Shown here in pieces: positions 15,334-20,193 of a DNA stretch of 21,136 nt. Within the stretch, counting starts at the first letter, position 1; every line of letters starts with the position of its first letter. The DNA lies in the IMG/VR virus record IMGVR_UViG_2667528074_000001; one strand, given 5' to 3'. The notes under the pieces were generated by a model. The model was not told the origin of the DNA. It searched no databases and saw only the letters and a program-made list of their open reading frames with translations. This stretch comes from a virus (lineage: Duplodnaviria > Heunggongvirae > Uroviricota > Caudoviricetes). Both the position numbers and the translations under genes were made by a program.

Positions 15334-16552
15334 CTCCACTCTCCTTTTTCTTACCGTTGTCATCGCCAGCAGAGGGACTGGTGGTCATGTTCATCGGTGT
15401 CAGATACACATCACCGCCCGGTCGGGGATTCATATCTTCCAGATCACGGCAGTCATTAGGGGAATAAATGCCCCAGTTAATCCCCGTGGCATACGCTTCA
15501 AATCGGGATTTCATGTCGCCACGTAACAATGCTCCGGCATTAAATTTGGCGTAAAATCTCCCCTGTTTACTCTCCCTGACCAGCCCCGTATTGATCCGCT
15601 GTTCAATACGGGTCAGGTACGGCACAAGGGAATAGTTAATGAAGCCAAGCCCCAGTTCTTCAATATTGTTGAAGGTGGCGCGATCAGTGTTCTGCACCAT
15701 ATGCAGTGGCACGCGGAACAGGCGACAAATTTCTTCCAGCTGAAACTTGCGGGTTTCCAGGAACTGGCTGTCCTCGGCATTCAGTGCCACCGTTTTCCAG
15801 TCCAGCCCCATTTCCAGAATCATCGGACGATGAGAATTTCCCAGCCCGACATGCCGTTCCTCAAAGTCCTTTTTGATACGCGCATAAGCCTGATCAGAAA
15901 GTTGTTGATCCGTACGCAACACACCGGATGTCACCGCGCCGTTACCAAACAACCTGGCGCCGTGCTCCTCAGTTGCCGCTGCCAGTGAAATGGCCTCACG
16001 CGCATACGCAATCTGATTCAGCCCGACCAATCCGTCCAGCGTAAGAGTGCGCACATGCCAGATTTCATCCTGGGTCAACACATCCACGGAACCATCCGGA
16101 AACGTCACCTGATAAACCGGCTGCCACTGGCTGTTCAGCTTCGGTTCCACACAGCCCGGATCTATCGGAAGAAGCTCCACCACTTCCCCCAGTGCCTTTA
16201 CCTTGTAGGCGTAAAAATTACCCCGCAGACACAGGCAGACAATGACCAGTTCCCAGAATTCCTGCGGCGTCATGTAACCATTGGGTTTTGCCGAAACCAG
16301 CTTATGCAGTCGTTCATCCACCGCCCGTGTTTTAAGGGTACCGGTGATTTTGTAGAGACTGCAGGGCAGCATACCAACAGACTCCGCCAGCACCCTGACG
16401 CAGGAATAGACCGCCGTCAGCCGCATGGCCCGTTGGCTACTGATCCGCTTTCCGGTATAGGTGTCGTATGACAGCCCGATAGCATCAGCCAGTTCTGCTG
16501 GCGTGGTCACCGGCGCATCACTTTTTCGTTGAAATAACCCCGAAAAGAACAC
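15311..16552 (-). CDS. Portal protein, HK97 family
   Basis: 413-aa ORF downstream of the large terminase. Start codon is GTG at 16552..16550, preceded by GGAGG with a 6-nt spacer, and overlaps the stop of the upstream small ORF (TAGTG). Confidence 0.9.
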   Translation of the reverse strand: MFFSGLFQRKSDAPVTTPAELADAIGLSYDTYTGKRISSQRAMRLTAVYSCVRVLAESVGMLPCSLYKITGTLKTRAVDERLHKLVSAKPNGYMTPQEFWELVIVCLCLRGNFYAYKVKALGEVVELLPIDPGCVEPKLNSQWQPVYQVTFPDGSVDVLTQDEIWHVRTLTLDGLVGLNQIAYAREAISLAAATEEHGARLFGNGAVTSGVLRTDQQLSDQAYARIKKDFEERHVGLGNSHRPMILEMGLDWKTVALNAEDSQFLETRKFQLEEICRLFRVPLHMVQNTDRATFNNIEELGLGFINYSLVPYLTRIEQRINTGLVRESKQGRFYAKFNAGALLRGDMKSRFEAYATGINWGIYSPNDCRDLEDMNPRPGGDVYLTPMNMTTSPSAGDDNGKKKESGDADKTAS

Positions 16553-16734
16553 TATTTACCTCCGCCGACAGACTGCCGCGTACGGTCGAGATATCGCGCC
16601 ACCAGCCACGACCAGAACAGGCACAACGCCCCGGCAACAACAAAACCCGCCGGGGGATAAATCAGCCATGTGCCATACGCCAGCAAAAGCGCCCCCAGCA
16701 CGCCCACCAGTGGCGTGAGAATTATCAGAAACAT
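16552..16734 (-). CDS. Small predicted membrane protein (60 aa, two hydrophobic helices) between large terminase and portal
   Basis: ATG 16734..16732 preceded by GAGG (5-nt spacer), 11 nt after the large terminase stop. Stop overlaps the portal GTG. Sequence [60 protein letters not shown]. Confidence 0.5.
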
Positions 16735-16745
16735 AATGACCTCGG

Positions 16746-18503
16746 TTAAAGCGAGCGGATACCAACGCTGACCAGATGCTCAGACAGATCCGGCTCCGGT
16801 TCACCGCCATTGACCAGCATCCGGCTCATTGCTGTAAACATCGCAACAGGACCGTCGATTTTGGCTTCCGGCGTGGATTTATTCGGGAAGATATTGTCGT
16901 TTTTATCCGGTTTCACCGTAACGTTAGACATCATCCAGTTCATGACCGGGTGATTGCTGTGGTGGAAACGTCCGGCATAGACCAGTGATTCCGTTTCCTT
17001 CATGGCCTCTGACAGATTGCGGACCGTCTGCGGAACCTCCACCAGCGGTATCCCTTCTTCAGCCAGTGCCAGGCTGAACTGCATCGCACTCCACGGGTCA
17101 AATCCCAGTTCCCTCAGGTTTTCACCACCAATCCATTCCAGTAAGTCACTTTTTATCTGAGCATGATCGATAACATCACCATCCGTCAGGATGAGCTTAT
17201 CCATCTCCGCCCACTTCCGGTAAAGTTCTGCCTGCTGCCGTGAACACCGTTCCAGTCGCCCTTCCGGAAGCCAGAATTTAAAATCGGCATGAACATGCCC
17301 GTTATCCGTTCGCCAGAGTTTTGCCGCCGCACAGATATCAATCTTATGAGCAAGGTCGACGCCGACCCACATGGGATACGTTTTCAGCTCATGCTGTGGA
17401 GCGATGTATTCACACTTCCCCCACTTAATCATGTCCATCCAGGCAGACTCGGCAGTGACCCACACATTCATGTGTTTGGTAAAAAAATTCACCCGCGCCG
17501 AGACCTGTTCCTTCGCCTTTTTCGCCAGACGACGCAAATCATCCCAGCGTTTACAGATGCCCAGGCCCGGATTCGCTTTCTGCCAGACCGTTTCATCAAA
17601 CGGATCATCTCCCTCATCGAGCGTGTAAATAATCGCAAAGTAGGAGTCGTCTTTTACCGCGCCCTCCACGTCGCTGTTATAGCCTCGTAATACCTTGATG
17701 GCGTAATCGCGTTGCTCGTAACAAATCCCTTCCTTGTTAAAGCCCGCCGTGGTGATACCAAATAACAGGGACTGCAGACGGGCACCGGTTGCCGTTTCCA
17801 GAACGTCCCACACGTCGCGGGTTTTATGTGCATGCAGCTCATCAATAATGGCGCAGTGGATGTTCAGACCGTCCAGGTTGTTTGCATCCGAGGAAAGCGG
17901 TTCAAATTTTGATGCGCTCTGCTCCTGGTAAATCGCCAGCTTGTTGAAATCAAACAATCGCCCGAGTGTCGGCCTGGCTTTTCTGACCATATTTTTGGCG
18001 TCTTCAAACACGATTCTGGCCTGGTCACGCGTGGTTGCGGCTGAATACACCTCAGCCCCGCCTTCACCATCTGCCCCCGTCATATACAGACCGATACCCG
18101 ATGACAGGGTTGATTTTGCGTTTTTACGGGCGACTTCGTTGTACGCCGTCCGGAACCGGCGCACCATCACTGGGCGTCCGCTGCCATCGCTGCGCATGAC
18201 AACTTCCCCGGTCTCTTCATTCACCAGCGGAATGACAAAACCAAAAATATTAATGAGGATAAATACATGCCAGTCCATCAACTCAATGGGCTGACCTGCC
18301 AGCGCCCCTTTTACATGGGGCACAAATTTGTAGAAATTCAGGATGTGCTGCGCACGGGGTTCACTGAAATAAATCCCCCGCTCTTCGCCGTACTTCAGAT
18401 CATCAAGAAAACGCTGGCAGGCCAGACGGACAAATTCGCCAGCGACAATTTCTCCTGCAACAACACGTTCGGCGTAGCGGATCCCGTCAGCCACTTTTGC
18501 CAT
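16746..18503 (-). CDS. Terminase large subunit
   Basis: 585-aa ORF. ATPase motifs present (Walker A-like VARKNAKST, Walker B-like [10 protein letters not shown]) plus a C-terminal nuclease region. ATG 18503 overlaps the small terminase stop (TGATG). Confidence 0.93.
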
Positions 18504-18985
18504 CAGTCTCTCGCTTTTAAAAGTTCCGCCAGCGGATCAACATCATCCGGTCCGGCGGTATTTACTTTCGCCCGGCTTGCCGGTGACATACCAAACTCTG
18601 CAAGCATCGCCCGGATCCGCTTCCAGGCATCCGCTTTCATCGCCGCAGCCGGATGTGCCTTGATCATCACATCGCCATTCTGCGTTTCCGTGCGGTAGGT
18701 ATAACCCTCAGCATCGAGTGTTTCGCAGTGATGCCGGTATTCGGTGTAGGCTTCCACCAGTAACTCGAGTGCACGCGCATCAAGCTGAGAAATGATCCCT
18801 TCCGCATTCAGCTCTTCCGCCATTCGCCTGAACCAGTACTTCCCCTGCGCCCCTAAATGTTGCGGAATTTTAGGGAGACCTTTTTCATCCTTTTTAGCGG
18901 TTTTTTTGTGGTCTTTAACGGGGCGCTTCGAGGGGTTGCCTCGAATCAAATGCAGGCGTGGCGGGGTTTTCGGGGGTCCTGACAT
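18503..18985 (-). CDS. Terminase small subunit (P27 family)
   Basis: 160-aa ORF. N-terminus MSGPPKTPPRLHLIRGNPSKRP is typical of P27-type small terminases. Immediately upstream of the large terminase. Confidence 0.85.
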   Translation of the reverse strand: MSGPPKTPPRLHLIRGNPSKRPVKDHKKTAKKDEKGLPKIPQHLGAQGKYWFRRMAEELNAEGIISQLDARALELLVEAYTEYRHHCETLDAEGYTYRTETQNGDVMIKAHPAAAMKADAWKRIRAMLAEFGMSPASRAKVNTAGPDDVDPLAELLKARD

Positions 18986-19132
18986 AATCGGTTTTACCTA
19001 TCAATCGTTTGATCGCATTCCCAAAAAAAAGTTTTCGAACCTGCGGCGATGCGAAGAAGGGTTGGCGGGCGGTCCCGGACAGCCAGGGCTGCAGGGATTT
19101 GACCCGCCCCTCCCAACAAGTGAGAATAATTA

Positions 19133-19483
19133 TCACTTGATTCGTTCGCGCGCTGTTTTCTCTTTGTGGCAGGGCCAGCACAGACTCCGCAGGTTGCTGT
19201 CTGCGTCTGTTCCGCCATGCGCTTTCGGGATGATGTGGTCGACAGTTTTCGCCTCGCTCACCACACCGACACGCAGACACAACTGACACAGACCTTTATC
19301 GCGCTTCAGAATACGGGCACGAATCACCGTCCATTTTGAGCCATAACCACGCTGGTGGCGGCTCAGTCCGCGCTGGTGCTGTGCCCAGCCTTCACCACGA
19401 TGTTTATCGCAGTAGCCAGAACTGTCTGTCGTTGTGCCTGCGCAGCCTCGCTTACGGCATGCGCGGGGGATCCGTGATGGCAT
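19133..19483 (-). CDS. HNH endonuclease (packaging-associated)
   Basis: 116-aa ORF. Cys-rich N-terminus (CRKRGCAGTTTDSSGYCDKH) and HNH motif (VDHIIPKAHGGTDADSNLRSLCWPCHKEK). Position directly upstream of the small terminase is typical of HK97-like cos phages. Confidence 0.9.
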   Translation of the reverse strand: MPSRIPRACRKRGCAGTTTDSSGYCDKHRGEGWAQHQRGLSRHQRGYGSKWTVIRARILKRDKGLCQLCLRVGVVSEAKTVDHIIPKAHGGTDADSNLRSLCWPCHKEKTARERIK

Positions 19484-19542
19484 AGAATTTCACTCTCCTG
19501 ATGGTAAAATAACCATTCCTTAAAAACCTATACGGAGAACAA

Positions 19543-19755
19543 ATGAAAAATACTATTTCAAAAGGATTTCACCGGACAGGCGTTCTGTTGGCTATTTTGG
19601 TGTTGATGTTGAGCTTTGGTTTCTTTTTATTAACAGGTGCTGGTACAGGAATCTCGTTATTTGCTGTATTAGTTTCCCTGGTATGTGCCTTACTGACATA
19701 CGGCATACTCAGACTGGTCGGATGGGCCGTTAACGGATTCATAAAAGATAACTAA
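19543..19755 (+). CDS. Small membrane protein (70 aa, two predicted TM helices), moron-like, opposite orientation to the late operon
   Basis: ATG 19543 preceded by GGAGA (6-nt spacer). Sequence MKNTISKGFHRTGVLLAILVLMLSFGFFLLTGAGTGISLFAVLVSLVCALLTYGILRLVGWAVNGFIKDN. Followed by the stem-loop at 19765..19789. Locally AT-richer than the flanking structural genes. Confidence 0.55.
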   Translation: MKNTISKGFHRTGVLLAILVLMLSFGFFLLTGAGTGISLFAVLVSLVCALLTYGILRLVGWAVNGFIKDN

Positions 19756-19764
19756 AACATTATC

Positions 19765-19789
19765 GCAGCCCCTCAGTGTGAAGGGCTGC
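19765..19789. terminator. Stem-loop between convergent genes (putative bidirectional intrinsic terminator)
   Basis: Plus strand GCAGCCCCTCA-GTG-TGAAGGGCTGC: an 11-bp stem (one mismatch on the plus transcript, a G-U wobble on the minus transcript), followed by moderately U-rich sequence on both strands. Lies between the stops at 19755 (+) and 19801 (-). Confidence 0.55.
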
Positions 19790-19800
19790 TGTAATGCCTG

Positions 19801-20193
19801 TTACTCACGAATCAGGCGAGCACTCTTACCATTCATTTCAATACGCGAATACTGCGGTTTACCATCAATGATGTCTGTCATTACGAACACCTCACCCGGC
19901 TGCAGTTCAACTGCACCTTCCGGTAATTTCATACCGGCAAATACCGGACAGCCCGGATGGCGATCATCTTCTGTTGCTTCCAGCATTGACTCACCAAACC
20001 ACGCCGTTGTAGCGCGACCATCAGCAGCCTTGTAGTGGATCAAGTACTGGTTTTCGCCATCCGCATACTGCGCGCGGGCTTTAACCTCACCCCATTCATC
20101 ACTGATGCGCATCTCCACCAGTTGTGACAGTTCAAACTTAAACGGAGCAGCCACAGCACCAATTACCATTGGTTTGTCTTCTTTCTTTTCCAT
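19801..20193 (-). CDS. Hypothetical protein (130 aa), function unknown
   Basis: ORF track 19801..20244; start placed at ATG 20193..20191, preceded by AGGAGA (5-nt spacer). Acidic, soluble-looking, no recognisable motif. Followed by the 19765..19789 stem-loop. Confidence 0.65.
   Translation of the reverse strand: MEKKEDKPMVIGAVAAPFKFELSQLVEMRISDEWGEVKARAQYADGENQYLIHYKAADGRATTAWFGESMLEATEDDRHPGCPVFAGMKLPEGAVELQPGEVFVMTDIIDGKPQYSRIEMNGKSARLIRE

Follow-up and report, generated by a model that had tools for sequence, protein, structure and literature searches.

The 147-bp spacer between the HNH endonuclease gene and the small terminase gene terS (18986..19132) very probably represents the cos site of a cos-packaging prophage of the HK97/SfV/phiP27 type, as judged from its gene context in the window (the whole 21,136-nt stretch of Caudoviricetes DNA analysed here) and its homology to reported cos ends. 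The packaging cuts most probably bracket positions 19062..19071, and the cos itself almost certainly lies somewhere in the spacer. An earlier note had placed cos between HNH and terS, and this placement is supported, the spacer being homologous to reported cos ends with identical register and internal spacing. Comparison with the cos sequences of HK97 and of SfV-type phages revealed a shared layout and a shared spacing.

Analysis of the open reading frames and their Pfam matches indicated that the packaging and head operon is encoded on the minus strand in the order HNH, 147-bp spacer, terS (P27 family), terL, portal, prohead protease, and major capsid, so that the expected gene order HNH, cos, terS, terL, portal is present together with an HK97-like TerL. 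The last gene before cos (19133..19483, minus strand, with its TGA stop codon at 19135..19133) encodes an HNH endonuclease of the gp74-like packaging accessory type (PF01844, E = 6.7e-16), which matches phrog_144 (HNH endonuclease) and is 38% identical to HK97 gp74 over 47 aa (E = 3e-10); at the DNA level, the gene is 95% identical to the HNH gene of phiP27 (L34). The first gene after cos is terS (18503..18985, minus strand; PF05119), with its ATG at 18985..18983, corresponding to +77 from the cut. It is followed by terL (16746..18503, minus strand), which encodes an HK97-like large terminase with ATPase and nuclease domains (PF03354 and PF20441), 29% identical to HK97 gp2 (E = 6e-41) and with HK97 TerL (6Z6D) as its only sequence match in the PDB. 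Headful (pac) packaging is associated with a P22-, Sf6- or T4-like TerL, no HNH partner, and no fixed ends; the window carries the HK97-like TerL with the HNH gene adjacent, a combination that does not point to headful packaging. Between terL and the portal gene, a 60-aa ORF (16552..16734) matches phrog_502 (membrane protein, moron category) and occupies the same position as the phiP27 L37 'membrane protein'. On the other side of the HNH gene, an AT-rich island (19484..19800, GC 0.27-0.43) separates it from the upstream genes and contains a plus-strand ORF for a hydrophobic 70-aa product (19543..19755) with no Pfam or PHROG match, as well as a terminator-like hairpin on the minus strand (19789..19765). 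DNA homology to phi467 and phiP27 ends at approximately 19484-19499, and the island looks like a moron insertion.

The length of the spacer was confirmed by direct reading and by the ORF listing, and the three ORFs that extend over it (18792..19286, plus strand; 18915..19289 and 18994..19218, minus strand) are all out of frame with the flanking genes, in agreement with the earlier note. Single-base indels among close relatives, in the T-run (T6-T9) and in the G-box, would frameshift all three of these ORFs, and the spacer is therefore considered non-coding. The GC content is 0.67-0.70 across 19030..19119. A perfect 7-bp inverted repeat (CAAGTGA/TCACTTG, 19117..19139) straddles the HNH stop codon; it is kept with one change in phiP27 and is not present in the phi467-type relatives.

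The predicted cos site consists of several elements arranged in order on the minus strand, in gene sense. The left-hand element, a G-rich box followed by TCAAATC (GGGAGGGGCGGGTCAAATC, 19114..19096, with the G-box part reading GGGAGGGGCGGG), lies at -53..-35 from the sense-strand cut. It is connected by a 24-bp stretch of fixed length and variable sequence (19095..19072), ending in GGGAC with a conserved G(G/T)AC beside the first nick, to the predicted cosN overhang 5'-CGCCCGCCAA-3' (19071..19062), which would form a 10-nt 3' extension and is placed by alignment with the reported ends. The nicks are predicted between 19071 and 19072 on the plus strand and between 19062 and 19061 on the minus strand. 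After CGCCCGCCAA, the gene-sense order is CCCTTCTTCGC-ATCGCCGCAGGTTCGAAAAC-TTTTTTTT-GGG..., and then the terS ATG; within this part, the conserved block ATCGCCGCAGGTTCGAAAAC (+12..+31) and the T8 run (+32..+39), together spanning 19050..19023, form a candidate TerS site (cosB). A match to the IHF consensus, WATCAANNNNTTR (TATCAATCGTTTG), is located at 18999..19011 on the plus strand (+51..+63) and is a weak candidate for an accessory bend site. A composite motif of the G-box, NNAAATC, 24 nt, and AC immediately followed by YGCC matches once in the window (19068..19114, minus strand) and not at all in 100 shuffles, which is clearly above chance.

To locate the cuts, we relied on four independent outside references, all of which place the cos ends on the same 10 nt (19062..19071) and all of which show TCAAATC, 24 nt, and then the overhang. 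The linear HK97 record closes with ...GGGGGGGGGATCAAATC, a 24-nt stretch whose last bases are TGAC, and CGCCGCCAAA, and restarts with GTTTGAATTT.... In the published HK97 TerS-DNA numbering, T16, C:G at 21, and A:T at 24-29 are given relative to a cleavage between -1 and +1 (PMC11331095); this numbering equals that of the record, and the HK97 cleavage therefore corresponds to the record junction. The HK97 overhang is a 10-nt 3' extension (PMC11331095; PMC9410871 is also cited on HK97). For SfI, run-off sequencing of virion DNA left a gap of 10 nt, TGCCCGCCCC (PMC3636060), and a gap rather than an overlap in reads from both sides points to 3' extensions; the same 10-mer comes after TCAAATC plus 24 nt in SfV, SfII, and ST64B. 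In the phiP27 record, CGCCCGCCCC is annotated as a 10-nt 'cos-site'; aligned with 19062..19071, it agrees at 8 of 10 positions. The fourth reference is the Proteus phage vB_PvuS_Pm34, whose TerS is 62% identical to the window TerS. In gene sense, one terminus of its linear record begins exactly with CGCCCCCTTA and continues with CCTCTTTTCACATCACCGCAGGTTAGAAAACTTTTTTT (a W-type block), and the last bases of the other are exactly ...GGGGCGGGTCAAATC followed by 24 nt that close with GGAC. The break of the HK97 record between -1 and +1 and that of the Pm34 record between -11 and -10 jointly bracket the overhang, and the chance that an arbitrary linearisation would hit that bond is about 1 in 40,000. 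The record of Providencia phage PSTRCR_117lys (MW358929, L171/L172) was also considered for its physical ends and proved uninformative, since its 'circular' junction lacks about 37 bp across cos; there, 8 nt separate the box from the TerS-side block that comes after it, and the termini were probably lost in assembly. The records of mEp235, SfII, Klebsiella phage MC05, Fraca, and CharmingMan are linearised arbitrarily, not at cos, and were set aside as evidence on ends.

The overhang CGCCCGCCAA agrees with the reference overhangs at just 7-8 of 10 positions, and two overhang alleles occur among phages with near-identical terminases; thus, sequence by itself does not fix the cut. These two alleles, CGCCCGCCAA in the window and CGCCGCCTGA in the phi467 type, were found in loci L007-L166, where TerS and TerL are both near-identical. 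We weighed the alternative that cos lies in the spacer with cuts other than those between 19062 and 19061 and between 19071 and 19072, in a different register or with a different overhang length; in one variant, the TerS site and not the G-box could serve as the reference point for the right-hand cut. Such an alternative would accommodate the wholly different right halves of the different TerS types, the varying distance of the T-run from the cut (+5..+11 in SfV, +24..+30 in HK97, and +32..+39 in the window), and the variability of the overhang at -3..-1 among the survey loci described below. However, HK97 and Pm34, which possess different TerS types, have record termini that coincide with the two predicted nicks and keep one common register relative to the box, and the SfI gap is likewise 10 nt in that register. 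Shifted cuts are accordingly rated unlikely, and the bracket 19062..19071 is the preferred placement.

The left-hand element lies at an equal distance from the overhang in HK97, SfV, SfII, ST64B, phiP27, phi467, Klebsiella phage MC05, and Morganella phage IME1369_02. Its distribution was surveyed by scanning relatives of the HNH protein in contigs from one genome per species, which yielded 80 loci from many genera, mostly of the Enterobacterales (for example Citrobacter, Proteus, Morganella, Providencia, Serratia, Xenorhabdus, and Photorhabdus) together with some Aeromonadales, Alteromonadales, and Betaproteobacteria. The G-rich box with NNAAATC was present in 44 of these loci, and the spacing from box to overhang was 24 nt in 39 of the 44, 23 nt in three, and 25 nt in two, in a search that tolerated 18-38 nt up to (A/G/T)AC immediately followed by (C/T)GC. 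All 44 loci have G at -14, a position that the search pattern did not dictate. The 24-bp stretch thus holds its length and neither its sequence nor its complementarity, and the G-box is also kept in relatives that have a gene other than HNH upstream. A variant left half, GGGAGGGCGGG-TCAAAAGTTCAGG...AGGAC followed by CGCCGCC, was observed in L179-L199, L221, L225, and L242 (Pantoea, Kosakonia, Leclercia, Enterobacter, and others); in L183, the one such locus that was counted, GGG and CGCC are 30 nt apart, compared with 31. Two further loci, in MAGs labelled 'Bacillota bacterium' (L241) and 'Pacearchaeota archaeon' (L251), carry an enterobacterial-type HNH gene and cos, and the L241 TerS is 99% identical to that of SfV; both are probably contamination or misbinning.

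The GC-rich dyad to which the earlier note had drawn attention as a feature of cos was also analysed. Its two strings, GGCGGGCGGTCCCGGAC (19064..19080) and GACCCGCCCCTCCC (19101..19114), are indeed present; what did not hold up is selection for their symmetry. Folded as DNA, the segment is no more stable than shuffled sequences (z = -1.0, with 30 of 200 shuffles equally or more stable). At 45 diverse homologous sites, 67.0% of the cells of the dyad pairing are paired, compared with 66.3% after shuffling (a value as high as that observed arose in 82 of 500 shuffles), and 140 of 500 shuffles attain the covariation score of the dyad. The reading of the dyad as an RNA or DNA hairpin, be it a terminator, an attenuator between HNH and terS, or a cruciform, in place of a packaging signal, draws on the RNA fold of the entire spacer (z = -2.2, a stability equalled by 2 of 200 shuffles) and on the ability of the G-box to pair with the C-rich overhang region, but the pairing and covariation at the 45 sites are at the shuffled level, and what is conserved in the 24 bp separating the arms is length and not complementarity. 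In addition, a scan of 18700..19900 found neither a terminator-like site nor a meaningful promoter in the spacer, which contains no U-run, and an Rfam search of the region gave no match. An intrinsic terminator or structured RNA is thus not indicated by a covarying stem, a U-tract, or an Rfam match, and we regard the hairpin reading as hardly likely at all. Sequence comparison indicates instead that the dyad is a by-product of the G-rich box and the C-rich overhang, each of which is conserved independently.

Analysis of the right half revealed that it co-varies with the type of TerS encoded beside it. The 20 alignment columns at 19031..19050 are invariant in a set of 66 distinct close relatives, while the third codon positions of the flanking genes have an entropy of 0.21-0.42. 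In the multi-genus set, 33 of 38 loci that encode a window-type TerS (amino-acid identity 48-72%) have CGCAGGTTNGAAA(A)C plus T5-8 ahead of the gene, the block and its T-run being nearly invariant across 33 species, and 30 of 31 loci that encode an SfV/P27-type TerS have ACCCGCGAAA(A/T)AT ahead of it. The length of the T-run ranges over T6-T9 in close relatives and over T5-T8 in the comparison of genera. The A8 run that the earlier note had taken as a cue does exist, at 19023..19030 and not at 19022..19029; on its own, it is at the level of chance (three A8 runs in the window versus 1.9 expected), and it gains its meaning as part of a conserved block specific to the window TerS type. Because the block co-varies with TerS type, the segment +12..+39, including this run, is likely to be the TerS binding site, by analogy with the HK97 TerS site at +15..+29, in which base-specific contacts lie beside an essential A-tract (PMC11331095). 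This analogy is an indirect one: the window TerS and HK97 gp1 have no BLASTP similarity, gp1 has no Pfam match, and the AlphaFold model of the window TerS (pLDDT 68) has no Foldseek match. The IHF-consensus match is the sole one in the 21-kb window, for which 0.74 would be expected; it recurs in 77 of 80 E. coli-group relatives and in none of 33 other-genus loci with the same TerS type, and is at most a lineage-specific accessory.

Comparison of the window with phiP27 indicated that the two flanks of cos, one with HNH and the other with terS, are exchanged independently, as modules that join within the overhang. The two phages are 95-97% identical over the stretch that begins at 19064 and takes in the HNH gene, their terminases share 19% (TerS) and 38% (TerL) identity, and the homology ends after CGCCCGCC, within the overhang. 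P27-type right halves also join after CGCCCGCC, and one IMG/VR contig is a recombinant with its crossover inside the overhang (GTCCGGGACCGCC joined to GCCTGACCC). The near-identical module is present in 1009 of 5426 complete E. coli genomes, with best matches of 95-97.5% identity, and in induced phages such as phi467; in one IMG/VR contig, both proteins are 100% identical to those of the window. This distribution bears on the possibility that the cos-like sequence is an unused relic in a prophage that is defective or packages by the headful mechanism. Many E. coli prophages are cryptic, and the window covers only about 21 kb, so that a defect elsewhere is possible; against this, the window ORFs for head, packaging, and tail proteins are all intact, TerL is of the HK97 cos type, the cos elements are more tightly conserved than the synonymous sites of the flanking genes, and the module recurs in the genomes and induced phages just mentioned. 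A relic is accordingly judged highly unlikely, and a functional cos is the reading followed below.

From HK97 biochemistry and the homologies above, we infer the nick positions, the overhang polarity, and the assignment of proteins to the parts of the site in the window phage, and a sequence of events can be proposed. During late growth, TerS would bind the conserved block and T-run just downstream of the cut, at approximately 19023..19050, and the downstream-bound TerS would stall or position TerL (PMC11331095, PMC9410871). TerL, together with the adjacent HNH protein, would nick the two strands 10 bp apart to give 10-nt 3' cohesive ends (sense CGCCCGCCAA), and packaging would start from the terS side and proceed toward lower coordinates. 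The G-box and TCAAATC would then be among the final 35-53 bp to enter the head, at the chromosome end that is packaged last. By analogy with lambda cosQ, the G-box with TCAAATC most likely positions the nuclease or signals termination. Full-text literature searches found no description of an upstream box in the HK97 group (figures were not searchable, making this a weak negative), and the box is conserved across many genera and unrelated TerS types, HK97 included. A more tentative proposal, which we consider possible yet somewhat short of probable, is that the G-box plus TCAAATC, 24 bp from the first nick, constitutes an undescribed cos subsite throughout the HNH-associated group and forms one half of a two-module cos. 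Such a subsite could be read by the HNH-TerL pair or, in the manner of cosQ, by the terminating motor, and it would set the position of the cut independently of TerS. In a two-module cos, the nuclease or termination half may travel with HNH and the TerS half with terS, with recombination inside the overhang.

The window cos belongs to the known HK97/SfV/phiP27 kind, all members of which have its left half in common, and is in itself ordinary. Its placement would fix the genome ends for a prophage family found in roughly one in five complete E. coli genomes, a family that includes Stx-converting relatives such as phi467 and phiP27. It also provides a simple cos search pattern for HNH-associated, HK97-like phages and suggests subsites for the HK97 model, namely an upstream box held at a constant distance from the nick and a TerS-type-specific A-tract block downstream. 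The HK97 TerS site had already been mapped in published work (PMC11331095); for the TerS subtype of the right half (phi467, mEp235, Pm34, and Klebsiella and Morganella phages), no published cos mapping was found.

In comparison with HK97, the window shares the arrangement in which cos lies between HNH, as the last annotated gene ahead of it, and terS, as the first gene beyond it, and the left half of HK97 likewise consists of a G-run, ATCAAATC, and 24 bp ending in GAC before CGCCGCCAAA. TerL (29% identity) and the HNH protein are homologous, and a T/A-tract lies downstream of the cut in both. The cutters in HK97 are TerL gp2 with the HNH protein gp74, the TerS is gp1 with its site at +15..+29, and the overhang is a 10-nt 3' extension. 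The two differ in that the HK97 TerS has no detectable sequence similarity to that of the window, the right halves are unrelated, the T-run lies at +24..+30 in HK97 versus +32..+39 in the window, the overhangs match at 7 of 10 positions, and the distance between the cut and the HNH stop codon is 319 bp in HK97 versus 61 bp in the window.

The phiP27/SfV/SfI/SfII/ST64B group (overhang NGCCCGCCCC) shares the TerS family PF05119 with the window. In phiP27, the HNH gene and the left cos half are 95-97% identical to those of the window and the overhang matches at 8 of 10 positions, and in SfI the overhang has the same size of 10 nt, established experimentally in that phage (PMC3636060). The group differs in its terminases, which are 19-24% (TerS) and 38% (TerL) identical to those of the window, in its right half, which reads TTTTTAYACCCGCGAAAAATGAAATTTAA whereas the window has ATCGCCGCAGGTTCGAAAAC and then T8, and in the last two bases of the overhang, which are CC there and AA in the window.

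Phages of the 'W' TerS type, including Pm34, phi467, mEp235, Morganella phage IME1369_02, and Klebsiella phages, encode a TerS 58-99% identical to that of the window and have the same right-half block, T-run, left half, and spacing. They carry other overhang alleles (CGCCCCCTTA, CGCCGCCTGA, CGCCGCCTTA, and CGCCGCCTAA), and among them the E. coli group alone has the IHF-consensus match.

The lambda cos comprises cosQ, cosN, and cosB, with a 12-nt 5' overhang, the terminase proteins gpNu1 and gpA, and the IHF site I1. A search for lambda cosN (GGGCGGCGACCT, up to 2 mismatches) gave only a chance-level match inside terL, and a cos of the lambda type was not found in the window. The window TerL lacks a GpA-type domain and carries PF03354 and PF20441, and the overhang of the window, by homology, would be a 10-nt 3' extension dependent on the HNH protein rather than a 12-nt 5' one. 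The two systems are nevertheless alike in the order of an upstream element, a nick site, and a TerS-binding region beside terS, the last two being predicted in the window. The E. coli group additionally has an IHF-consensus match between the nick site and terS, and the window G-box stands where cosQ stands relative to cosN.
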